From Bengtsoniella intestinalis (GTDB lineage Bacteria; Bacillota; Clostridia; Oscillospirales; Oscillospiraceae), in contig NZ_CP133584.1 of assembly GCF_039719005.1 (NCBI RefSeq), positions 1,666,622 to 1,690,621 of the forward strand: a stretch of 24,000 bases of DNA, read 5' to 3'. The notes beneath the pieces were generated by a model. The model saw only the letters and a program-made list of their open reading frames with translations, searched no databases and was not told the DNA's origin. A program made the translations under genes and the position numbers. Position 1 is the stretch's first letter. Every line of letters begins with the position of its first letter. Shown here piece after piece: positions 8,814-22,203 of the stretch.

Positions 8814-9258
8814 TGTACCATTTATTTACCCCAGAATATATGATACGCTTTATGAGCTGGGGATTACTGCCAACTATGTTGGCTTTTTTCATACCTCTTT
8901 CGGCGTGTATTTGGCAGTTAACCAACCTGAGCGTATGCAGTATATTACAAAGTGGCTCTATCCAGATATTGCAAAGCAATATCATACCAACTGGAAATCG
9001 GTGGAGCGAAATATTCGTTCTGTGACTGCTATTGCCTGGAACACAAACCCGTTATTATTGCAAACTATGGCACGACACCCTCTAAGCAAAAGACCTTGTA
9101 ATTCCCAATTTATCGCTATCTTAGCCGCTCAATTTCCCTTGCCCTTATTCGGTGCCTGCGCTCTTTTGCCACAAGAGGGATTGACGGTATCTAACAAGGA
9201 ATACAGGCACCTAGTTGCGGTGGCTAGTGAAGCGGATAGACAAAAAATAAGCATCTAA
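8797..9258 (+). CDS. Standalone Spo0A C-terminal (DNA-binding) domain protein
   Basis: The stretch GITANYVGFFHTSFGVYLAV...ITKWLYPDIAKQYHTNWKSVERNIRSVTAIAW...KRPCNSQFIAILAAQF matches the Spo0A effector domain pattern (ITK.LYPDIAKK..TT.S.VERAIRHAIEVAW...KPTNSEFIA..A). There is no receiver domain. It overlaps the XRE gene by 17 nt. Confidence 0.75.
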   Translation: MIMMHDVPFIYPRIYDTLYELGITANYVGFFHTSFGVYLAVNQPERMQYITKWLYPDIAKQYHTNWKSVERNIRSVTAIAWNTNPLLLQTMARHPLSKRPCNSQFIAILAAQFPLPLFGACALLPQEGLTVSNKEYRHLVAVASEADRQKISI

Positions 9259-12041
9259 ATCTTATATTTCTTCTGGATATACCCCAAAAATGCCTCGATT
9301 TCATCCTGTGCGTTTTTGGGGATTTTCTTGTCCCAGAATACCGTTGGCACAGAAAATGCCGTGAGGCTATGGTTTGCCTTTAGGAAGTACACTTGCTCCT
9401 GTGAGAGTACCAATTTCCGAATGGCATAGCCATTATCTGTCCATGTGTGGGAGATGCAGTTGGGGGCGGTATCGTACCAGAAGTTGCTTTGTGTACTCTC
9501 CAAATACCCTAGCTGTTGCCCCAATAGGCGGCCTATCTCTTGAAAGGTCATCATAAAGCCTTGCCGATGTTCTTTGCGAAAATGTTCTCGCAATGCCCCA
9601 TAGTCGTGGGTTGGGAAGGTGGTGTTTTCTTCTGGCTGATAGTCGTTTAATTGCTCTAGCAGAGCGGACACATCTAGCCCTCTCACATGACTGGCATCAC
9701 GATACTCCACCGTATGCTCAGAGCATTTGATATGGATGTAAGCGGAGAATTTACCCAAAGGTTCCGTGTCTATGACAGTCAGCTGATGGCTTGGGAGCAT
9801 GGCCTTGCCACAGAGATAGCATTTGCCATCTTGGGACTTCCATAGTCGCTTATATTTGCCGCCTTTGTTGTTGACTGCACGGCGGTAATCCAAGGATTTT
9901 TTGTACTCGGTATCGAGGAAGTGATTGTAGTTGGTTTTCACTGGAAGGTATCGAATGGGCACGGTGTCTACGCAACGAATAACCTGTAAATGCCGTTTGT
10001 CCTCGGCAGAAAAAATGTATTCATCCTTGCTGATTTTGTACCAAAACTTCTTCTCCAACTTGGTCCAGTATTGTCGTGGAAACAAGGCTCTGACCTTTTG
10101 AATGAGCAGTGCTTGTATCACCACATCCAAATGACGAAAGGCATCGTGGGCATCGGTCATGCGGTGATAAGAGGTGTAGCCCACAATCATTTTGTTGAGA
10201 CCTATAATCAACTCCTCCACACTTCCAGTGTGTCGCTCAATGTAGTGCATCAGCTTTTCTTCAAAGCGCCGTAAATTGTCTTTGGATGGCTCTGCAATCA
10301 CCTTGCCATTACGAAGGTGATAGTACCGTCCTAAAAATGCAAAACCCTGTTGGATGGAGCGAATGGAGCTTTTCTCCTCGGAGAGTTTCAGTCCACGGAC
10401 AGATAGAAAATCGGCTACGATGGACTTGATTTCTTTGGCCTGTGCCTCGCTCTTGGCAAAGACTAAAATATCATCGGCAAAGCGAATGAGGTCGCCATAG
10501 GCATAGTTTTCCACAGGGGCACCGCCATAGAGCCTGCGTTGGATATAGGACTGCAACCCATCAAGCACCATGTTCCCGATAACAGGTGAGATGCCAGAGC
10601 CTTGGCTAATGCCCACTTCTTCCGCTGGGAACAGCTCGCCATTGAGGATTATCCCTGCATTGAGATACGCTTTTAATGGGGCTTTCAATGGCAAGTTCCG
10701 TAAAATCCAACGGTGAGAGATGGTATCGTAATAGCTTTTTACATCTGCACGGAGCACCCACAAGGGCACCTTGCTCCCCTCTAAGGTGCGACGAATATAA
10801 TGGTCTACATCAAACCCACTGCGCCCTTTTCGAAAGCCAAAGGATTTGCGGTCAGCCGTGGTCTCGGCCACTGGCTCTAGGGCATACCGCACGAGGGTCT
10901 GCATAGCTCTGTCTCGATAGGTGGGGATGTTAATTCTACGGTCTTTTTTTCCATCAAAAATCACCACACAGCGTAATGGCTGGCAGACGTAGCCCTCCAC
11001 CTTCAAGTCAAAGGTCGCTTGCATCTTTTGGCTGCTTGTCTCCCAACGCACCCCATCTGTGCCGACCTCCGATTCTGTTTCTGAAACGTGTCGCACTGCG
11101 AGGGCACGGGCTTCTGGAAGGTTAATGATTTCATCTTGCATCTGGTCTATCTGTGAGCGATTGCGCTCTCGCACCGCTCGTGCTACGGCCTGTTGCTTTT
11201 CAAAAAGAATACGTTCATAGCTAGGCCAGTCAATGCCATCCCAAAGGCGAGATAGCAGGGTTGCCGTCCATGTCATTTGCCGTGAAATGGAGGTGGTTAC
11301 TTCCAATGATATAGGGCAATGGTCTGAGCCGTGGATATGGGAGAGGATTTCTGTGTCTAACACCGTGGGGAGCAATCGTTGGGACACCAGAAAATAGTCC
11401 AATCGCCAGCCCCGATCTTCACGGCGCTTGAACAGACGGTATGACCACCAAGTATAGCCACGGGTTTCTGGGTTTTGTAGGCGGTATACATCCACCAAGC
11501 CCCAATGCAATAGCCGTTCAAATTTGGCACGCTCTATGGGTTGAAAGCCCACTGGATTTTTTTCATTGCGAAGATTTTCGGGGTAAATGTCAATGTAGGT
11601 ATGGGCAACATTGAAGTCACCACAGATTATCATGGGCTTATTCAATGCCTTTAGATATTTGAAAAAAGCATCGTCCCAATCGCTCCGATAGTTGTCACGA
11701 CTGAGCCGACCCTTGGACATGGGTTGGTAGACATTGATGAGATAAAAATCCTCAAATTCAAGGGTTAAAATTCGCCCCTCAATATCAAATTGCTCTAATC
11801 CTAAACCTTCACGGACAGAGATGGGGGGTACTCGTGATAGCACCAGCACCCCAGAGTAACCCCGTCTGCGTGAACTATTCCAGTAGGCCTCATAGCCCGA
11901 AATCTCTAGCTTGGCCTGCTTGCGAGTAGATTTGATTTCTTGGATGCAATACACATCGGCATCCAACTCTTGAATTTTTTCAACAAAGCCCTTTTTCATG
12001 CAGGCACGAAGGCCGTTGACGTTCCACGATATAATTTTCAT
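9255..12041 (-). CDS. Fusion protein: ExoIII/APE-type (EEP) endonuclease, then group II intron-like reverse transcriptase (RT0-7 plus thumb/X), then a degenerate HNH/Zn module, then a domain of unknown function
   Basis: - The ORF is 928 aa, with RBS AGGAGAG.
- aa 1-248 form an ExoIII fold with all catalytic positions present: WNVNG (N7), QE (E35), VYQP (Y105), GDFN (D142/N144), RLDY (D215), SDH (D240/H241).
- aa 270-575 carry the RT motifs: IDW...LAVRHV...GTDG (RT0), RRINIPTYRDRAMQ (1), FGFRKGRS (2a), LRADVKSYYDTISH (3), GISQGSGISPVIGN (4), IRFADDILVF (5, complement of 10470-10481), GLKLSEEKS (6), GFAFLGRYY (7).
- The thumb is LNKMIVGYTSYHR.
- aa 741-776 read CYLCG...IHIKCSEH.
- aa 810-928 are unassigned. 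Confidence 0.9.
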   Translation of the reverse strand: MKIISWNVNGLRACMKKGFVEKIQELDADVYCIQEIKSTRKQAKLEISGYEAYWNSSRRRGYSGVLVLSRVPPISVREGLGLEQFDIEGRILTLEFEDFYLINVYQPMSKGRLSRDNYRSDWDDAFFKYLKALNKPMIICGDFNVAHTYIDIYPENLRNEKNPVGFQPIERAKFERLLHWGLVDVYRLQNPETRGYTWWSYRLFKRREDRGWRLDYFLVSQRLLPTVLDTEILSHIHGSDHCPISLEVTTSISRQMTWTATLLSRLWDGIDWPSYERILFEKQQAVARAVRERNRSQIDQMQDEIINLPEARALAVRHVSETESEVGTDGVRWETSSQKMQATFDLKVEGYVCQPLRCVVIFDGKKDRRINIPTYRDRAMQTLVRYALEPVAETTADRKSFGFRKGRSGFDVDHYIRRTLEGSKVPLWVLRADVKSYYDTISHRWILRNLPLKAPLKAYLNAGIILNGELFPAEEVGISQGSGISPVIGNMVLDGLQSYIQRRLYGGAPVENYAYGDLIRFADDILVFAKSEAQAKEIKSIVADFLSVRGLKLSEEKSSIRSIQQGFAFLGRYYHLRNGKVIAEPSKDNLRRFEEKLMHYIERHTGSVEELIIGLNKMIVGYTSYHRMTDAHDAFRHLDVVIQALLIQKVRALFPRQYWTKLEKKFWYKISKDEYIFSAEDKRHLQVIRCVDTVPIRYLPVKTNYNHFLDTEYKKSLDYRRAVNNKGGKYKRLWKSQDGKCYLCGKAMLPSHQLTVIDTEPLGKFSAYIHIKCSEHTVEYRDASHVRGLDVSALLEQLNDYQPEENTTFPTHDYGALREHFRKEHRQGFMMTFQEIGRLLGQQLGYLESTQSNFWYDTAPNCISHTWTDNGYAIRKLVLSQEQVYFLKANHSLTAFSVPTVFWDKKIPKNAQDEIEAFLGYIQKKYKI

Positions 12042-12114: not shown

Positions 12115-13383
12115 TCATGGGCAACAATTTCCGCATGGAGAGTAGCCATTTTCGATTAAAACCTCTCTGTCCTCCGTGGAGGTGGCATAATTCTTAGCGG
12201 ACATTTGGGATACGCTATAACAATCTGGGTAATGGAATTTGTGGCTACTGGTGTTCAGCACATAATAAAATTCGGAATCAGAATCGTCGTCGGTGGTATC
12301 TGTAATAGTGCCTGTTACAGTGGAGGTATTACTTGTTGGAGCGGTAAGCAGTTCATTGTCGCTGATGATTTTATCGGTGGTAACTGTCACGGTCTGCCCA
12401 TCGGAGGTGCAGATAATGTCACCTTGTAAATCCGTGCGATACAGGGTGACGTCAGCATCCCTCAGACGGCTCAATACGGCATCTGTGGGGTGCCCGTAGG
12501 AGTTACCCTCGCCACAGGAAATAACAGCGTACTGGGGCATGATTTCCCTCAAAAAGAGGTAGCTAGTAGATGTGTCACTGCCGTGGTGACCTACCTTTAG
12601 AACGGTGGAAGATAGGTCTGTTCCACTGTTCAATAACACCTGTTCAGCCTCATATTCTGCATCCCCCGTAAAGAGAAAAGAGGTCTCACCATAGGTGATT
12701 TTAAGCACGATAGATGTGTTGTTGGCATCGGTATCACTGTTGACTGCGAGAATGTCAATGTCAGCACTGCCCAATGTGTATTCGTCGCCTACGCTGGGTA
12801 CAGTGATACCGCCATTGAGGTCGGCATAATAGGCGAAATTCTCAAAGGCGTTGCTGTCATAGGTGGTCACTGGGCAGAGTATAGTATCAGCAGTTGCGTA
12901 GTTCAGTGCGCCGCTCAAACCGCCGATGTGGTCCTCGTGGGCGTGCGTCCCAACTACGATGGACAACTCGGTAATACCACGCTTGTCGAGGACGGAATAG
13001 ATTAAATTTGAGTCGGCCACATTGCCACCATCTATCAGCATATACTCCCCATCGCAGGAGACGAGAGCGGCATCAGCTTGTCCAACGTCCAAGAAGATAA
13101 TTTCAAAGGTGGAATCCTCCGATATGAGGGTTGTTGAAGTCTCCGTGTAGGTATTTGTGATACTGTCTATAGTCGGCTCAGTAGCGGTTTCTAAGGGCAG
13201 TTCAGCAGGGGTCTCTAAAGAAGGTGTAGGGGTTTCGAGTAAGATAATCTGTTCTACCCCTTGAGACACAGATGGGCTAGGTGTTTCAACATAATCGGCG
13301 GTGCTCTCACACCCAACCGAACAGCACAATATCATAAACATAGCTACAAATAACTGCAAGCCTTTTTTCCTTTTCATGGTCAA
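12115..13383 (-). CDS. Lipoprotein with a ComEC-like metallo-beta-lactamase fold domain and a C-terminal Cys/His zinc-ribbon-like tail
   Basis: The lipobox is FMILCCSVGC|E, followed by a Thr/Ser/Pro/Glu-rich linker. The MBL motifs are IIFLDVGQADA...LIDGG...GTHAHEDHIGG...GHHG...YGHP. The tail is HKFHYPDC...GYSPCGNCCP. Confidence 0.85.
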   Translation of the reverse strand: MTMKRKKGLQLFVAMFMILCCSVGCESTADYVETPSPSVSQGVEQIILLETPTPSLETPAELPLETATEPTIDSITNTYTETSTTLISEDSTFEIIFLDVGQADAALVSCDGEYMLIDGGNVADSNLIYSVLDKRGITELSIVVGTHAHEDHIGGLSGALNYATADTILCPVTTYDSNAFENFAYYADLNGGITVPSVGDEYTLGSADIDILAVNSDTDANNTSIVLKITYGETSFLFTGDAEYEAEQVLLNSGTDLSSTVLKVGHHGSDTSTSYLFLREIMPQYAVISCGEGNSYGHPTDAVLSRLRDADVTLYRTDLQGDIICTSDGQTVTVTTDKIISDNELLTAPTSNTSTVTGTITDTTDDDSDSEFYYVLNTSSHKFHYPDCYSVSQMSAKNYATSTEDREVLIENGYSPCGNCCP

Positions 13384-14343: not shown

Positions 14344-14637
14344 TTAGAAATAGTTAGGGATCGCTATATCTGCAAAATCTTCCTGCCCCGTAATCACCAC
14401 ATTGTTATACCCCATGGAGCAATGAATAATGATGGCATCCCCATCTTCATCCCACCCTGCGAAGATTCCAACACGGCTATCATCAGCGTAGAACACCAAG
14501 TCGCCGGAGATGGCTTCTTCCCATGTGGTGGCGGTGCAGTAGGTGTGCTGCATGATAACGCCACCACCGTGGCCTATGATATATTCGCCGTCTGAGACGT
14601 TATAAAACACCCAATCTACAAACCCAGAACAGTCCAG
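14344..14637 (-). pseudogene. C-terminal fragment of an NlpC/P60 (C40) cell-wall peptidase, beginning exactly at the catalytic-Cys motif
   Basis: The sequence reads ...GLDCSGFVDWVFY...GDLVFY...VGIFAG...IIHC.... No signal peptide or N-terminal domains are present. The upstream part of the track ORF is integrase DNA read in another frame. Confidence 0.6.
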
Positions 14638-15088
14638 TCCGTAGGGCAGATACGGTGATATGACGTAGCTCCGACACACGGATTCCTGTGGCGCAGATGG
14701 TCTGGATTAGGAGTGCCAGCTTGCGATTCTTTTTCTTCTCTGCCGCTTGGATCAGCCGTTCATATTCTCGCTGGCTCAATTCCTTCTCAGGCTTTGAAAA
14801 GATTTCCCTCTGGATTTTTAGTTGCTTTACCTTGTATTGCGGAAAGCCCAGCCACTCCAAAAAACCATTGATCGCCGCCAACATGGAATTGACACTAGCA
14901 GGGGCATAGGCAGCGATAATATACTCCTTAAAGGCCAGCACCACCAGCTTGCTTAGCTCCTGCCCATGGGTGAACACAAGGAATGTTCGAAGGTCACGGA
15001 GATATTTTTGGATGGTATTCTGACTGCGTTCCTCCTCGTGGAGATGAATTTTGTATTGATTTAAGACTTCAAGATTGTAAGTTGTCAT
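14633..15088 (-). pseudogene. Truncated tyrosine recombinase (N-terminal about 152 aa only), paralog of the intact gene at 17457-18311
   Basis: It aligns residue for residue with the 284-aa recombinase up to ...ICATGIRVSELRHITVSALRTG. Homology then stops and the frame ends after 10 unrelated codons. The catalytic HxxR...Y region is missing. Confidence 0.75.
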
Positions 15089-15118: not shown

Positions 15119-15350
15119 TTTAAGGCACGGCTGCCAGCCGTGTCTTTTGTCTTTTTGTTGCCTAAGCTGTTAGAATGGGAGAGAACAGGTCTGGCTCTGT
15201 TTTCCGAGGGCTTACACGCCCGCAAAGGAGTCCGCCAGCCGCCTCTCTCGTTCGCAGCATTCGATTTGCGCAGGTTGTGCCACCAAGACTGGTGCGTTCG
15301 TGTCACTCAGGAGATTGAACAAGCAGCGAAGAAAGCGGAATGCCTAATCA
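15119..15350 (+). ncRNA. Candidate IS110 bridge (guide) RNA region
   Basis: This is GC-rich structured non-coding DNA upstream of the transposase. It opens with the hairpin cacggctg-c-cagccgtg (15127-15143). It contains aaaggagtcc (15224-15233), which is perfectly complementary to ggactccttt at 16720-16729 near the predicted right junction. The track's N-terminal extension (15140-15370) has no RBS. Confidence 0.3.
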
Positions 15351-15370
15351 AAATACATGGAGGAAACAAT

Positions 15371-16588
15371 ATGAACGCAGTCGGAATCGATATTTCCAAA
15401 GAATTCAGCGTGGTAGCCGCCCTGCGGCCTATGGGTGAGGTGGCGCTCCCACCTCGTACTTACCAGCACGACAGCCACAGCATCGACGTACTGGCGCAGG
15501 AAATTCTTGCGTTGGGTGCGGACACCCGTGTCATCATGGAGGCCACTGGTCGTTACCACGAACCAGTCGCCCAGACACTGAGCCAGCACGGTATCTACGT
15601 CAGCATTCTCAACCCACTACTCATCAAGCAGAGCGGTGGTGGCTCCATCCGCAAGGTTAAAACCGACAAAGCCGATGCCCTAAAAATCGCAAAATACGGG
15701 CTTGACAATTGGGTGGATTTGCGAGAACATACACCTATGGAAACCATACGACAACAATTAAAGCTCTGCACACGGCAGTACAATTTGTACATGAAAACCA
15801 TTGTTTCATTGCAAAACAACCTAATTTCTCTCTCGGATAAGACCTTTCCAGGCGTCAACGAGCTGTTTTCTAGTCCTGAGCGCAAGGATGGTCATGTCAA
15901 GTGGATTGATTTTTTGGCTACATTTTGGCACTGTCACTGCATTGCAACCGTCAGCGAAAAGTCCTTCACAGACCGCTATCAAAAATGGTGCAAGCGAAAG
16001 GGGTACCATTTTCAACCCAAAAAGGCGGCTGAAATTTACGCAAAAACCCAGAAAATGATTGTCACTCTGCCCAAAAACGACTACGCAAAATTGTTGGTTG
16101 TGACGGCGGCCAAGCAACTCATAGCCTCCAAAGAAACCCTCTCTGAGATGAAAATCGAGATGAACCGCATGGCTAAAGAGTTGCCCGAGTACGACACCGT
16201 CATGGCGATGTACGGCGTAGGCGAGGCCACTGGCGTACAGCTGATGGCGGAGATTGGGGATGTGCGTCGCTTCGCCCACCGCAGCTCCATTGTGGCGTTT
16301 GCAGGGGTGGATCCGTCGGTCAACCAGTCAGGCAAGCAGACCTCTCAAGGCGGAAAGACCACCAAACGTGGCTCGCCCCACCTGCGCAAAACGCTGTTTC
16401 AGGTGGTGTCTACCTACGTCAAGAAGAAGCCTGAGGACGAGGCGGTGTACCAGTTCATAGACAAGAAACGTGCCGAGGGCAAGCCCTACTACGTCTACAT
16501 GACGGCCGCACAGAACAAGTTCCTGCGGATTTATTACGCTCGGGTCAAGGAGTGTATGCTGGCTCTGGAGACCGCCAGCGAGGGCTAA
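15371..16588 (+). CDS. IS110-family transposase/recombinase (DEDD RuvC-like N-domain plus Transposase_20 C-domain)
   Basis: The ATG at 15371 follows GGAGGA. Signature stretches are MNAVGIDISKEF...IMEATGRYH... and ...YGVGEATGVQLMAEIGDVRRF...AFAGVDPSVNQSGK. Confidence 0.9.
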   Translation: MNAVGIDISKEFSVVAALRPMGEVALPPRTYQHDSHSIDVLAQEILALGADTRVIMEATGRYHEPVAQTLSQHGIYVSILNPLLIKQSGGGSIRKVKTDKADALKIAKYGLDNWVDLREHTPMETIRQQLKLCTRQYNLYMKTIVSLQNNLISLSDKTFPGVNELFSSPERKDGHVKWIDFLATFWHCHCIATVSEKSFTDRYQKWCKRKGYHFQPKKAAEIYAKTQKMIVTLPKNDYAKLLVVTAAKQLIASKETLSEMKIEMNRMAKELPEYDTVMAMYGVGEATGVQLMAEIGDVRRFAHRSSIVAFAGVDPSVNQSGKQTSQGGKTTKRGSPHLRKTLFQVVSTYVKKKPEDEAVYQFIDKKRAEGKPYYVYMTAAQNKFLRIYYARVKECMLALETASEG

Positions 16589-16780: not shown

Positions 16781-16812
16781 AAAAAATGCGTCTCACAGTG
16801 AGACGCATTTTT
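16781..16812. terminator. Bidirectional terminator
   Basis: aaaaaa-tgcgtctc-acagt-gagacgca-ttttt. It lies 115 nt downstream of the 77-aa minus-strand ORF. Confidence 0.6.
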
Positions 16813-16926
16813 GCTACGTTATAAAAGTTTGGGGGAGCAAACTGATTGTATGCAAGGATAGTTTGGGTTCGTGAAGAAATGTCAAGTCGAAGTAGTTGGA
16901 CAATCGCCCACTTTCAAACGGGCTAA

Positions 16927-17160
16927 TTAAAACGGGGTATCCTTAATAGAAATTTCGTATGCTGTGAGATTTTGTTGATACTCTAGTAAAACTTCTCGCA
17001 GTTTTTCAGGTGTCTGACACAGTATAGATTCAAATGGGCCTGCAGCTACATCTTCGATGAGCATGACAATATAGCCATCATCGCTTGATTGCACTTGGCA
17101 CATATCATCTTCAGCTAAATATGCTTCAAATTCGTTCAGAACTTGTTTGTATGTAAGCAT
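16927..17160 (-). CDS. Hypothetical small acidic protein (77 aa)
   Basis: The RBS AAAGGTGGGG lies 5-8 nt upstream of the ATG. I recognise no family. It lies directly downstream of the inverted-repeat-bounded segment. Confidence 0.5.
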   Translation of the reverse strand: MLTYKQVLNEFEAYLAEDDMCQVQSSDDGYIVMLIEDVAAGPFESILCQTPEKLREVLLEYQQNLTAYEISIKDTPF

Positions 17161-17176
17161 CGTGGCCCCACCTTTC

Positions 17177-17210
17177 GAGTTACCACATAACCTTTATTAT
17201 GTGGTAACTC
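17177..17210. repeat. Recombinase core-type site 1: 14-bp perfect arms around the 6-bp spacer ccttta
   Basis: gagttaccacataa | ccttta | ttatgtggtaactc. The stretch 17182-17207 is a 26-bp perfect inverted copy of 17430-17455. Confidence 0.7.
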
Positions 17211-17368
17211 GGCGTATTAGCTATACCGAAAAATCACTATCGAATCGAATAGAAACTGTACTTATAACTAAAAATACACAAATTTACCAGACCGATTTTT
17301 GATTAAACAAGAATCGGTCTATTTGTGTTGCCCTTAATAATATATAATGAACTAAATACGAATAAGAC

Positions 17369-17397
17369 TTGTGTTTTTCAATGAAAGCTGTTATAGT
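17369..17397 (+). promoter_or_regulatory. Candidate promoter inside the invertible segment
   Basis: TTGTGT, a 17-bp spacer, then TGtTATAGT (extended -10). It currently points toward the 3' end of the recombinase gene. After inversion it would point into the 77-aa ORF. Confidence 0.4.
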
Positions 17398-17429
17398 GAG
17401 CCAATAGACAGTTATAAATTGCAAATTTT

Positions 17430-17455
17430 TTACCACATAATAAAGGTTATGTGGT
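17430..17455. repeat. Recombinase core-type site 2: same arms, with the spacer reverse-complemented (taaagg)
   Basis: ttaccacataa | taaagg | ttatgtggt. It abuts the recombinase stop codon (17457-17459). Confidence 0.7.
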
Positions 17456-17456
17456 T

Positions 17457-18311
17457 TTATAAATTTCCGTAAAGTAGCTTCATACGCTCTAGCTGTTGCA
17501 TATGCTTCGTGCCTGTTTCCATGGTGTAAATACGGGTTGTGTTGATGCTGCTATGCCCTAAGATGTCGGCCAATCGGCTGATATCTTTTTCTATTTTATA
17601 ATAGGTGCGTGCAAATAGGTGCCGTAGATTATGGGGAAATACCTTGCTGTGGGCAACCTTGGCATCAGCACATAATTGCTTCATCATTTTCCAGATATTT
17701 GAGCGATCTAGCGGATTTCCCGATTTGGTCACAAACACCGCCCCCTGACATATGCCCATCTCTTTACAATATGATTTTAATGTTTTACAGAGTTCTTTCG
17801 GTAAGAAGACGATTCGATTTTTCCCCTTGCAACGTACAGTGGCACGACCCGCATGGAGTGCAGACACTGTGATATATTGCAACTCAGACACGCGAATTCC
17901 TGTGGCACAAATAGCTTGTATCAGTAAGGATAGTTTTCTGTTTTGCTGTTGCTCTGCCGTTTGCACAAGGCGCTCGTACTCCTTTTGACTTAACTCCTTT
18001 TCAGGGCGAGCAAAGATGGTGCGTTGAATTTTTAGCGGCTTAACTTTACAGAGCGGTAATGCCAACCACTCTAAAAAACCATTGATGGCTGCCAACATGG
18101 AATTGACACTGCTCGGGGCATAGTCTAGCAGCAAGTTCTCTTTGTAGACAAGCACCTCTGCTTTGATCAGTTCCCTATCATCTAAGAACTCCAAAAATTT
18201 TCTGACATCCCTCAGATACTTCTGTACGGTGTTTTGACTACGTTCTTCTTGGTAGAGATGGACTTCATAGTCGGTTAAATATTGCTGATTTACTGTCTTT
18301 GCTTGGATCAT
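17457..18311 (-). CDS. Tyrosine recombinase/integrase (XerC/D-like, 284 aa), intact
   Basis: The N-terminal SAM-like domain reads ERSQNTVQKYLRDVRKFLEF. The catalytic residues lie in ATGIRVSEL (R), ...HNLRHLFA (HxxR) and ...GHSSINTTRIY (H...Y). Confidence 0.9.
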   Translation of the reverse strand: MIQAKTVNQQYLTDYEVHLYQEERSQNTVQKYLRDVRKFLEFLDDRELIKAEVLVYKENLLLDYAPSSVNSMLAAINGFLEWLALPLCKVKPLKIQRTIFARPEKELSQKEYERLVQTAEQQQNRKLSLLIQAICATGIRVSELQYITVSALHAGRATVRCKGKNRIVFLPKELCKTLKSYCKEMGICQGAVFVTKSGNPLDRSNIWKMMKQLCADAKVAHSKVFPHNLRHLFARTYYKIEKDISRLADILGHSSINTTRIYTMETGTKHMQQLERMKLLYGNL

Positions 18312-18499
18312 ATGTGTTCCTCCTGACCGTTAGTATAATTGAATCCCGAGAGAATATCTAGTCGCTTGCATACCATAGTTTCTCGGTATACTAAATAATC
18401 GCCAAGTTGAGAGTAATTTACTCCAACTTGGCGATTTTATTTGGTCGGTTTTTGGTCTAGGGGGAGCAGTCATAGGATATTACCTCCGTTCGGCGGACG

Positions 18500-18629: not shown

Positions 18630-20923
18630 TCAATTTTGTTTTTCCAAAAATGCTAAAAAGTCTGACTGAGGCATGGGACGTGCAAAGCCATAGCCTTGGC
18701 CCACATCACAGCCTAAGTTGCGGAAAAACTCAATCTGCTGGTTGGTCTCCAAACCTTCGGCTACCGTTTCCAGTTGAAGTTCTTGTGCCATGCCAACGAT
18801 ATGTGCCACAATGGAGGCACCTTTTTTACTCTCCAGTGCGTCCACAATAAATTGGCGATCTATTTTCAGGGTGTCCAGAGGGATGTTTTTCAAGCGTCCC
18901 AGAGAGGAGATACCTACCCCAAAGTCGTCCATGGCGATGGTAAAACCGAGCTCTCGTAGCTGGCGAATCTTGTCGGTGGCCACTGCGAAATTTTTGATGA
19001 GAGCACTTTCGGTAATTTCTAGGTCAAGCTGACGGGGCGAGAGGCCATAGCTGTCCACAATACCAGCGACCTGCTGGACGAAATTATGCTTCATAATGGT
19101 GACACCCGAGAGGTTCACAGAGATGACAGGGAGATTGTCAGACTTGTGGCTTTGAATAAACTGGCACACCTCGCCTAGTACATAGTAATCTAAGGTTTCG
19201 ATGAATCCATTCTTTTCGAAAATGGGGATAAAGTCGTTGGGGGCACCAACTTCCCGTCACGCACCCAACGCACCAGTGCCTCGGCACCCACTGTTTGCTC
19301 TGTTTTCAGATGTACTTGGGGCTGATAATAAACCACAAACTCCTTGTTGGCCACACCAGTTTTCATGTGGGAGACAATCTCATTGGATTTGTCTCGCTCC
19401 TGAGACATCTGAGGTGTGAATCCGTGGATGGTAAGCTCCGCTGTCTCTTTGCCCAAATCCTTAGCCAGCTTAGCGCAGTTACACATATAGCTGATGGACA
19501 GGGTGGGGTCTGTAATATGATAGTAGCCAATGCTATGGCTGTAGTGGTAGTCACGTCCCAAGGGTTGGCTAAAGTCGGCAAAGCCAGACTCCATGAAATG
19601 GGCACCCTCTCCCAGATAGCCGACATGAATATCTAGGGTGGGGATTAAAATCCAAAATTGGTCTGCAAAGCTTCGAGCAATCACCAGTGCAGTGGTGGCC
19701 GTTTCACGGAGATATTCACCATAAGCCTTGAGCACAAGGGTGCCTGTGTTATAGCCGTAAAGCTCGTTGATGTATTTGAAATTATCAATATCGAGGCAAA
19801 AGATGGTGTACTGTTTCTGTGGCTTTTCATCCATGAGGTGGAGTAATTCTGTCTCAAAGTGGTGGAGGGTGGCCAGCCCAGTGACGCTGTCCACCGTCAA
19901 TGTCCTCTTCAAATTGCGTTTTTCCTTGCGGTTTGCCAGCGCTTGCATTACACCCACCGCAGCCACCACAATTAACACGATAATCATAGCTATCTGGAGG
20001 GCACGCATGGGATTTGCAGCAATGAGTTCAGCCAATGTAAAGTCGGGGGCGTATACATAAGTCGAGTGGTTAAGGATGGAGTAGGAGATGGCCGAAGTGT
20101 CCAGATACCCAATCATTTTGTTGAGAATATCAATTTTATCTTGAGAAAAATGACTGGGATAGGCGAAGGCACAGTAGTAATGGTCAGAGAGAAGGTCAAT
20201 GGTGTAGTTCTCGCTAGAGATTAGACCCTTTGATACATTATACCGTGCAGTGCTGAGCACCATACCTCTAATGGAGTCATCAGCAAATGCGGCATTTAAG
20301 TCATCAAATTGCGAAAAGACTATCACCTCAGCACCGTCGAACATAGCATCCAAATCATCTTGTGAACGATCATAGTAGGCCAGAATACCCACAGGGAGGT
20401 CAATGGTTGTCCCGAGGTTATCATTATGAATCATGACATAGGGCATATCGAAATAAGAGGGGCTAATTTGGGCGATATTCTCGATATCAGGACACTGCCG
20501 AGTAATGCAAAAATCCACATCGTTAATGGAGGCCCCCTCCACCCCAAGATTGACGTATTCTACATTTAACTCTAAGGCCTCAGCAATGGCAGAAAATACA
20601 TCCATCGCCGCACCCGCAAGCTCCTCGCCGTGGAGATAACTCATAGGCTGAAGGTCTGGCATATAGCCCACCAAATACACCTCTTGAGACTGCATGAAAG
20701 CAATTTCGTCTTCCGTTAAAATATCCTCTACCATCACCTCACTAGAGCTGACATCGACAGCCACCTCAACAGCTAAACCTATGGTGGAGAGTAAAAGCGC
20801 CATTATACACGTCATCGCAAAACAACGTAAAATATATCGTTTCATAGAATTCAATTGCTCACTTTTCCCAGTTCCTTGCACTTCTAAAACTGTACTTAAT
20901 CGTATCGTAATTATACTTTTCAC
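18630..20923 (-). pseudogene. Frameshifted membrane signalling protein: periplasmic SBP_bac_3-like sensor, TM helix, degenerate GGDEF domain, EAL phosphodiesterase domain
   Basis: - The 577-aa and 179-aa track ORFs are one gene.
- Reading through 19239-19243 (GGGGG, which is C5 on the coding strand) with one extra base restores ...GAEALVRWVRDGKLVPPNDFIPIFEKNGFIETLDYYVLGEVCQFIQSHK....
- The GGDEF site is SFADQF (degenerate).
- The EAL motifs are intact (EAL, DDFGVG, KIDRQF, AEGLET, QGY).
- The likely true start is the ATG at 20845 (MKRYILRCF...). Confidence 0.75.
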
Positions 20924-21304: not shown

Positions 21305-21340
21305 GGTCGCCTTCATTGACCAAAGTCAATGAAGGCGACC
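21305..21340. repeat. Perfect 16-bp stem / 4-nt loop hairpin upstream of the IS4-family transposase start
   Basis: ggtcgccttcattgac caaa gtcaatgaaggcgacc. A TTGACA hexamer lies at 21283-21288, just upstream. Confidence 0.5.
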
Positions 21341-21382
21341 CTTGTTATTGAGCATAACGCTGATAACAAAGGAGATGCACAC

Positions 21383-22112
21383 ATGACATTCACAACAAAA
21401 AACATAAAAAGAACACTAAAAAAATCCATAAAAGCCCTTTCGCAAAACGCTGTAAAATATGCTGAAAATCCAGAAAAAGACTTCACCCGAAATAGGAAGT
21501 TACCATTTGAAAAAGTAATTGAAACAACCTTATCTCTCACAGGAAAAACACTATATGGGGAATTATCCGAACAATTCGGCATACATTCATCCTCACCTAC
21601 AGTATCCGCTTTTGTGCAACAACGAAACAAAATCAAATCAACTGCCTTCGAGGATTTATTCCACCAATTTGTTGCCGAAACAAACCAACCCATCACCCAC
21701 CGTGGCTACCGCCTTTTGGCTGTGGATGGCTCTAGTTTGCACGTTCCCACCAACCCAAAGGAAGTGGATTCTTACCATCAAAAGGCCAATGACTCCAAGC
21801 CTTTTAACCTTTTGCACCTCAACGCCATGTACGATATTTTGCGCAAAACCTACGTGGATGCAACGGTTGAAAAGGGTGAAAACAAGGCCTTTGCCACCAT
21901 GGTGGCACGTAATCAATCAAAAGTACCCACCATTTACATTGCTGATAGAGGCTACGAATCGTACAATAATTTCGCTCATGTGCAAGAAAGAGGGCAAAAA
22001 TTCCTTGTCAGAGTGAAGGATTCTGCTTCACGCAACGGTATTTGTCACGGATTATCTTTGCCTGTTGGTGAGGAGTTTGACGTTTCACTGACGCTACACA
22101 TTTCACGCAAGC
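21383..22112 (+). pseudogene. IS4-family (DDE_Tnp_1) transposase, N-terminal part, interrupted by an IS3-family insertion
   Basis: The ATG at 21383 follows AAAGGAG. The protein reads MTFTTKNIKRTLKKS...LLAVDGSSLHVP...IYIADRGYESYNNF...FLVRVK...LTLHISRK, then hits the IS3 end. Confidence 0.8.
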
Positions 22113-22203
22113 TATAATGGACCCTAGAAACCAAACCAGCACTCGAAAAATTATCGTGAACGTGATACAATATCAAAAACGATAAACGAGAGGAGAACAT
22201 ATC

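Follow-up and report, generated by a model that had tools for sequence, protein, structure and literature searches.

A probable inverton in Bengtsoniella intestinalis: a Xer-like tyrosine recombinase beside two dif-like inverted sites and a small orphan gene

Here we analyse a 24,000-nucleotide stretch of the Bengtsoniella intestinalis genome (positions 1,666,622 to 1,690,621 of contig NZ_CP133584.1; hereafter, the window), in which the gene for a Xer-like tyrosine recombinase ends next to a pair of short inverted sites, followed on the other side by an open reading frame (ORF) for an acidic protein of 77 amino acids (aa). A first-pass annotation had read this arrangement as an invertible promoter switch acting on the small ORF, an interpretation that we find probable. 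The features of the locus, in window coordinates, are as follows.

16782–16812, no strand: 15-nt perfect palindrome between A5 and T5 tracts, 115 nt downstream from the small ORF
16927–17160, minus strand: cargo gene for the 77-aa acidic protein, preceded by the ribosome-binding site AAAGGTGGGG
17176–17211, no strand: site 1, the cargo-proximal core site, CGAGTTACCACATAA-CCTTTA-TTATGTGGTAACTCG, with the inverted-repeat arm at 17182–17207
17208–17429, no strand: putative invertible segment of 222 bp, bounded by the inverted repeat
17289–17320, no strand: conserved hairpin within the segment, flagged by a scan for terminator-like structures on the plus strand (13 pairs, tail ATTTGTGTTG)
17369–17397, plus strand: putative outward promoter TTGTGT-17-TGtTATAGT with an extended −10 element, read from the sequence
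17430–17455, no strand: site 2, the recombinase-proximal core site, TT-ACCACATAA-TAAAGG-TTATGTGGT, a 26-nt repeat arm
17456–17467, plus strand: T-rich tail TTTTATAAATTT (the last T of site 2 counted in), directly after the site 2 hairpin
17457–18311, minus strand: gene for the Xer-like tyrosine recombinase, 284 aa, a presumed invertase, assigned from Pfam and from alignment to solved relatives
18332–18360, minus strand: candidate recombinase promoter TAGATA-17-TATACT, from a consensus scan

The 26-nt inverted repeat formed by positions 17182–17207 and 17430–17455 has no mismatches and, as the first-pass annotation had described, its two copies carry spacers that are exact reverse complements of each other, CCTTTA in site 1 and TAAAGG in site 2. 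Both copies are themselves palindromic core sites of the form ACCACATAA-N6-TTATGTGGT. The perfect arms of site 1 (17176–17190 and 17197–17211) are 15 nt long, not 14 bp as first given, and flank CCTTTA, and site 2 has 9-nt palindromic arms around TAAAGG. The length of about 250 bp ascribed to the segment is right when counted from site start to site start (250 bp), but the gap between the repeat arms is 222 bp. Site 2 adjoins the recombinase stop codon, with a single base between them rather than in direct contact, and site 1 does lie upstream of the 77-aa ORF, whose start is 15–16 nt, and not 17 bp, past the outer edge of the site. When up to three mismatches were allowed, ACCACATAA-N6-TTATGTGGT was found at two places only in the 24 kb, site 1 and site 2; shuffled sequence is expected to yield 0.04 matches, and none of 100 shuffles reached two.

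The recombinase ORF is intact, with matches to the Pfam families Phage_integrase (1.6e-28) and Phage_int_SAM_1, and its closest solved structures are XerA (4a8e, 3.9e-21) and XerD (1a0p). The catalytic set Arg-Lys-His-Arg-His-Tyr is visible in the XerA alignment (GIRVSE, KGKNR, HNLRH, GH, RIYT) and, together with the Phage_integrase match, bears out the claim that an intact tyrosine recombinase gene stands beside the sites. Its scores fall below all the NCBIfam cut-offs for Xer equivalogs (XerA, 145.2 versus 220; XerD, 125.8 versus 329.6; XerC, 123.3 versus 335; XerS, 75.5 versus 267) and far under those for the tyrosine-type DNA invertases FimB/FimE (NF007371, 30.6 versus 222; NF007370, 29.9 versus 221). 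A B. intestinalis protein (P0001) is identical to the recombinase (100%), and no fewer than four other paralogues, about 70% identical, are encoded in the same genome; exact-protein look-ups of the window recombinase and two of these paralogues matched no record. A paralogous remnant is also present within the window at 14630–15088, in an ORF at 14344–15088 on the minus strand; over residues 2–155 it is 66% identical to the intact recombinase, it reads in frame into an NlpC/P60-like tail, and no core site lies nearby.

An orthologous locus on a contig of a metagenome-assembled genome (MAG; L001) shows how this arrangement is conserved. Its recombinase is 87% identical to that of the window, and a shared block with 81% nucleotide identity covers the recombinase promoter region, the recombinase, the site, the segment, the second site and the small ORF, running from window position 18369 down to 16977. 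The candidate recombinase promoter is therefore inside the conserved block, the homology of which starts at 18369, and the genes that flank the block in L001 are unrelated to those of the window. The spacers of L001 are CCTTCA and TGAAGG, in place of CCTTTA and TAAAGG, so that both sites have been altered together, as expected if two sites must match for recombination. In another relative (L127), both arms are altered symmetrically, to TACTACATAA...TTATGTAGTA. A Logan contig (L128) encodes a homologue of the small ORF with 81% aa identity, behind a site 1 and 5′ leader identical to those of the window, and starts at the exact inner edge of the 26-bp repeat, and a further contig (L007) ends one base past a recombinase-proximal site. 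As the repeats are shorter than an assembler k-mer, such breaks at the repeat edge are the pattern that a mix of orientations produces.

To place the locus in a wider family, we scanned metagenome contigs with the pattern CCACATAA-N6-TTATGTGG, which gave at least 120 loci, supplemented by one viral contig and by loci from a protein look-up. Family counts apply to the loci listed by the scan, with site pairs defined as lying 100–600 bp apart and with one array (L023) excluded. A protein-based scan of species genomes returned four loci and a viral scan one (L006), and a plasmid collection contained no match to window positions 16900–18400. At 43 loci of gut metagenomes and MAGs we find the same layout of recombinase, site, short segment, inverted site and cargo gene. 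Their spacers are reverse-complementary in 44 of 44 site pairs and comprise 27 distinct sequences, none of them palindromic; non-complementary pairs occurred only within the unrelated array L023. The segments span 158–394 bp (median 228), and the family consensus site is ACCACATAAT-N4-ATTATGTGGT, which site 2 of the window fits. In 38 of the 43 loci listed, a recombinase homologue (43–87% identity) ends 6–170 bp from a site and in every case points its 3′ end at the pair, and the site arms are conserved in DNA across recombinases that share only 43% identity. Two tandem modules on one contig (L129) have differing spacers, GTGCAA and CGATGG, which fits a role for the spacer in keeping switches of the same genome from recombining with each other.

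Inversion itself is recorded in one member of this family. Two loci from separate assemblies (L043 and L084) and one from a third (L089) have flanks that are 99.9–100% identical in the same orientation, whereas the 236 bp between the sites match (99.2% identity) only when one copy is reverse-complemented and are 35% identical when compared as they stand, and the breakpoints fall at the sites. A family member found both ways, and site pairs that are antiparallel in 44 of 44 cases, agree with the earlier prediction that opposite spacer polarity leads to inversion.

A clear sigma-70 promoter lies within the segment in 12 non-redundant loci, pointing outward and often of the form TTGACA-17-TGnTATAAT. 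It faces the recombinase in nine of them, with the end of the −10 element 25–38 nt from the faced site, and the cargo in three (25–75 nt). In the window, the −35 element TTGTGT (17369–17374) is followed, at 17-nt spacing, by TGt TATAGT (17389–17397); the candidate promoter is currently aimed at the recombinase 3′ end, its −10 element ends 35 nt from site 2, and it is kept in L001 as TTGAAA-17-TGtTATAGT. The promoter put forward in the first-pass annotation is thus on the plus strand as described, conserved in L001 and at a family-typical distance, but its ON/OFF assignment depends on a weak −35 element.

The sites also differ in the transcription signals around them. On the plus strand, site 2 is predicted to form an RNA hairpin of −11.6 kcal/mol, followed by UUUUAUAAAUUU, and judging from the sequence this hairpin and the T-rich tail look like an intrinsic terminator for transcripts heading to the recombinase gene. 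The site 1 hairpin (−26 kcal/mol) has no U-run behind it and is followed by the ribosome-binding site AAAGGUGGGG. The same asymmetry is seen across 31 non-redundant loci, where a T-run (at least five of nine bases) is found past the recombinase-proximal site in 27 and past the distal site, toward the cargo, in two. The inner hairpin at 17289–17320, which is kept in L001 (6991–7022), folds at −17.7 kcal/mol on the plus strand (z −6.3) and −15.2 kcal/mol on the minus strand, and is probably a terminator or insulator.

On the basis of these features, a recombinase dimer would bind each of the two dif-like core sites, with arms ACCACATAA and TTATGTGGT around a 6-bp overlap. Because the two overlaps, CCTTTA and TAAAGG, are antiparallel, strand exchange would invert the 222-bp segment rather than delete it. 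As assembled, the promoter would fire toward the recombinase gene and its transcripts would be stopped by the site 2 hairpin and T-run, leaving the 77-aa gene OFF; after inversion, it would stand about 70 nt upstream of the 77-aa ORF and read through site 1, which has no T-run, turning the gene ON. That the promoter points toward the recombinase in most assemblies fits OFF as the majority state. What the sequences show directly is the sites with their conservation and covarying spacers, the linked recombinase, an inversion in a family member and the geometry of the promoter; for the window locus itself, we infer the flipping, the activity of the promoter and the termination at site 2.

The layout, the covariation of the spacers, the conservation in L001 and the family promoter distance all support the reading of the locus as an invertible promoter served by a tyrosine recombinase, and we consider it highly probable that the window locus is a recombinase-driven invertible switch, or inverton. 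For the specific assignment of the ON and OFF states our confidence is lower, and we favour it only by a modest degree. Several observations pull the other way. The −35 element of the window promoter matches the consensus at three of six positions, and the promoter was not called in a simple consensus scan. A second conserved block near site 1, TTCGAT-18-TATAGC, faces the cargo as assembled; its −10 element is TATAGT or TATAAT in L001 and L127, and it might serve as an additional, weak promoter. On the minus strand the inner hairpin makes a poor terminator, so that transcription of the recombinase gene could continue into the small ORF. The T-run of site 2 overlaps the stop and last codons of the recombinase gene, and its conservation may be partly due to coding constraint. 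Furthermore, the sole natural inversion, that between L043/L084 and L089, is known from metagenome assemblies and not from reads, and the assemblies of the window locus and of L001 each present one orientation only.

Some of these points would also suit a segment that inverts but has its main output on the recombinase itself, in the manner of fimE-like orientational control, or that modulates the small ORF by swapping a strong promoter for a weak one. Transcription of the recombinase gene runs toward the switch in every case, the strong promoter faces it in nine assembled family members against three, and the second −10-like block faces the cargo. Yet the T-run at the proximal site in 27 of 31 loci suggests that antisense transcripts end before they reach the recombinase gene, diverse cargo genes follow directly after the distal site, and the −35 element of the second block is very poor (two of six matches); we consider this an unlikely account of the locus. 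We give still less weight to a fossil switch, with inverton architecture but fixed in one orientation and no longer flipping in this strain. The single orientation of the window locus and L001 would agree with it, as would a decaying neighbourhood that holds a truncated paralogous recombinase, IS110 and IS4-type transposases and a split GGDEF-EAL gene; set against this, both sites are perfect and their 26-nt repeat mismatch-free, the recombinase ORF is unbroken and retains every catalytic residue, and the related contig L128 breaks exactly at the repeat edge.

The least credible of the alternatives involves no recombination, with the palindromes acting only as RNA hairpins (terminators or stabilisers of messenger RNA) or as the ends of a small non-autonomous mobile element. 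The sites do fold, at −11.6 and −26 kcal/mol, and site 2 is followed by a T-run. However, the loops of hairpins need not match, and here all 44 pairs are reverse-complementary with 27 different loops; the arms are conserved as DNA across recombinases only 43% identical; a precise inversion between sites is observed in a family member; and no further copy of a putative element exists in the 24-kb window. We rejected terminator-only hairpins and ends resembling those of miniature inverted-repeat transposable elements on account of the spacer covariation and the observed inversion, and excisive attL/attR sites on account of the position of both sites on the same side of the recombinase gene, in inverted orientation.

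The 77-aa ORF has four close homologues (69–100% identity) from which it differs mostly at third codon positions, and is on these grounds a real gene. Searches of its product against Pfam, PHROGs, NCBIfam and PADLOC gave zero matches. An AlphaFold model consists of a helix, three strands and a helix (predicted local distance difference test, 78.6), and a fold search of the PDB with this model returned nothing below E 0.3. Remote relatives found by profile search form a wider unannotated family of about 98 aa in mobile elements, where they adjoin TnpV and a large serine recombinase, or a relaxase; these relatives have no switch sites and are therefore uninformative on the function of the 77-aa protein. 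A second family of small cargo proteins, of 82–84 aa, is the sole cargo of other switches (L006, L031, L049, L059, L043 and L084), and its two subgroups (the first four loci versus L043 and L084) share 26% identity (E 6e-11). A 143-aa protein (P0126) has a firm link to the window 77-aa family (E 6.1e-15); its N-terminus is weakly similar to the 82-aa family (33% identity, E 6e-4, to the L006 type only), with no alignment to the L043-type 82-aa proteins, and from these alignments it appears to be a natural fusion joining the two families. Elsewhere in the family the cargo is diverse and includes ResIII/HA-domain helicases, an MmeI-type methyltransferase, transglutaminase-like lipoproteins, an SPFH/zinc-ribbon protein, a YpsA-SLOG protein, and TetR and BTAD regulators, types of cargo that are typical of phase variation. 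Downstream of the 77-aa gene, the palindrome at 16782–16812 is a possible bidirectional terminator; the block shared with L001, L127 and L128 does not include it, so that its membership of the switch is uncertain.

Invertible promoters flipped by tyrosine recombinases are a classic theme, and the nearest mechanistic analogue is the fimB/fimE–fimS–fimA system of Escherichia coli. There, too, the gene for a tyrosine recombinase sits directly upstream and points toward an invertible segment, of about 300 bp, that carries the promoter of the downstream gene and gives ON/OFF phase variation, and in both cases the switch may, through its orientation, affect the expression of the recombinase. In fimS, the inverted repeats are 9 bp long, the half-sites that flank them are not identical, and IHF and Lrp are required, whereas each repeat of the window is a complete palindromic core site (about 10-4/6-10 bp) and the window recombinase falls outside the FimB/FimE family (30.6 bits against a cut-off of 222). 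In Cre/loxP and FLP/FRT, the spacers of partner sites must be identical and inverted sites lead to inversion. Like the window sites, these have symmetric arms and a direction set only by the asymmetric central spacer, but their protein and site sequences are unrelated and they serve plasmid or phage maintenance rather than gene regulation.

Similarity to the Xer/dif system is closer at the level of sequence. The dif site of E. coli is GGTGCGCATAATGTATATTATGTTAAAT, that is, GCGCATAA-TGTATA-TTATGTTAA (PMC3025954), and the core of the window and its family shares with it CATAAT...ATTATG and the arm-6 bp-arm layout, with arms of roughly 11 bp in a dif-type core (PMC3025954); likewise, the window recombinase most resembles Xer proteins (XerA 4a8e and XerD 1a0p). 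It nevertheless scores under every Xer equivalog cut-off, and the setting differs: two inverted sites stand 250 bp apart beside the gene instead of one site at the terminus, at least five paralogues occur in one genome and tandem modules with differing spacers on one contig, and the outcome in the window family is inversion rather than resolution.

The claim that phase-variable control of the small ORF would be new biology was overstated, as invertons of gut Clostridia with adjacent tyrosine recombinases have already been catalogued (PMC11892184; PMC5903667); the novelty is confined to this cargo gene and to how the sites are built. PhaseFinderDC inverton group 139 contains 33 invertons, 32 of them from 17 strains of Clostridia; it is statistically tied to a group of tyrosine recombinases (invertase group 35), and nearly every inverton has one nearby (PMC11892184). 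Flipping of the group was measured from reads, and its members include a 26-bp repeat with a 205-bp segment in Clostridium sp. D5 (3525576–3525832) and a 227-bp segment in Intestinimonas butyriciproducens (1750639–1750893), which like Bengtsoniella belongs to the Oscillospiraceae (PMC11892184). The host class, the recombinase linkage and the geometry agree with the window family; the motif of the group was published as an image only (PMC11892184). Switches of the window kind are thus probably already catalogued as group 139, but the dif-like cores, the spacer covariation and the terminator asymmetry are not described in that paper (PMC11892184). Invertons in Clostridia have also been reported from read-based surveys (PMC5903667). 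Those controlled by RecV in Clostridioides difficile (cwpV, flgB, pdcB and others) are, like those of the window family, invertible segments of Clostridia served by a tyrosine recombinase; the genes that they control have surface and signalling roles (PMC5903667). They depend on a distant 'master' recombinase that acts on several unrelated repeats, mostly with no adjacent recombinase, whereas the switches of the window family each have their own recombinase and a shared arm sequence.

A literature search with the arm sequences returned unrelated papers only, and a keyword search returned surveys with no description of the site. Within the literature searched, we found no description of the dif-like site anatomy, of shared arms combined with a private, covarying spacer, of the terminator asymmetry between sites or of recurrent orphan small proteins as sole cargo, and these aspects seem to be new.

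The survey also brought to light several arrangements outside the common layout. The excluded array L023 (1–10080, contig Ga0222685_1000446) contains 16 CCACATAA-N6-TTATGTGG sites with spacers that are all different, unpaired and located at small-ORF boundaries, with no recombinase homologue on the contig, and it resembles a gene-cassette array separated by dif-like sites. A further 78 unpaired perfect sites, mostly from soil and freshwater (loci L007–L126), have no recombinase homologue within 400 bp, and 29 of them are no more than 150 bp away from the end of a contig; the palindrome may, in other taxa, be a marker of repeats or of mobile-element ends. At L004 (1215–1271), two recombinase-proximal sites share the spacer TCCGCA and are in direct orientation, 33 bp apart, together with one distal site (TGCGGA), and the doubled sites could be a duplication or alternative end-points of inversion. 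One switch, with spacers TAAACA and TGTTTA, stands ahead of a ResIII/HA-type helicase at three loci (L028, L046 and L102). No recombinase homologue is present at L102, which has more than 4 kb either side of the pair, and L028 and L046 are too short to tell; a paralogue whose gene lies elsewhere may act on this switch in trans.

Around the switch, the window looks like a decaying mobile-element hotspot. An IS110-family transposase (15140–16588, plus strand) and a DDE transposase (21329–22117, plus strand) flank the region, and the GGDEF-EAL gene upstream of the recombinase (18630–20923, minus strand) is split into ORFs at 19190–20923 and 18630–19169. Further along, a 928-aa protein (9255–12041, minus strand) combines a complete exonuclease III/Xth domain (NCBIfam TIGR00633, 264 bits; cut-off, 99) with a group-II-intron-like reverse transcriptase (RT). 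The RT part matches RVT_N, RVT_1, GIIM and PADLOC RT_UG17 (82 bits), and it scores 223 bits against the NCBIfam model for group II intron reverse transcriptases, under the cut-off of 300. Its neighbour (12115–13383, minus strand) is a metallo-beta-lactamase-fold protein with matches to PADLOC 'RTasMBL' and to LmuA. The order of endonuclease followed by RT is like that of non-LTR (long terminal repeat) retrotransposons, and the pair may form a defence-type RT system.

Far less is understood about phase variation in gut Clostridia than about that in Bacteroides or C. difficile, and the locus provides a clean, directly testable example of a widespread inverton family with a dedicated Xer-like recombinase and dif-like sites. 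As a tentative proposal, which as a whole we hold to be less likely than not, recombinase and switch could constitute a portable cassette for phase variation that is complete in itself and has spread among gut Clostridia, in which shared arms combined with a private spacer of 4–6 bp let paralogous switches coexist without cross-recombining, the recombinase-side site doubles as the terminator of the OFF state, and a small cytoplasmic orphan protein is the sole cargo in the window and in at least two other lineages. In this proposal, the small cargo proteins may be trans-acting factors (a regulator, an anti-defence protein or a control of mobile elements), as their relatives reside in mobilisable transposons, and a local flip would then amount to a global switch. 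A private-spacer rule would explain how one genome can hold many switches and could supply orthogonal recombinase sites for engineering, and the switch points to ON/OFF control of a family of small proteins that is as yet unstudied.

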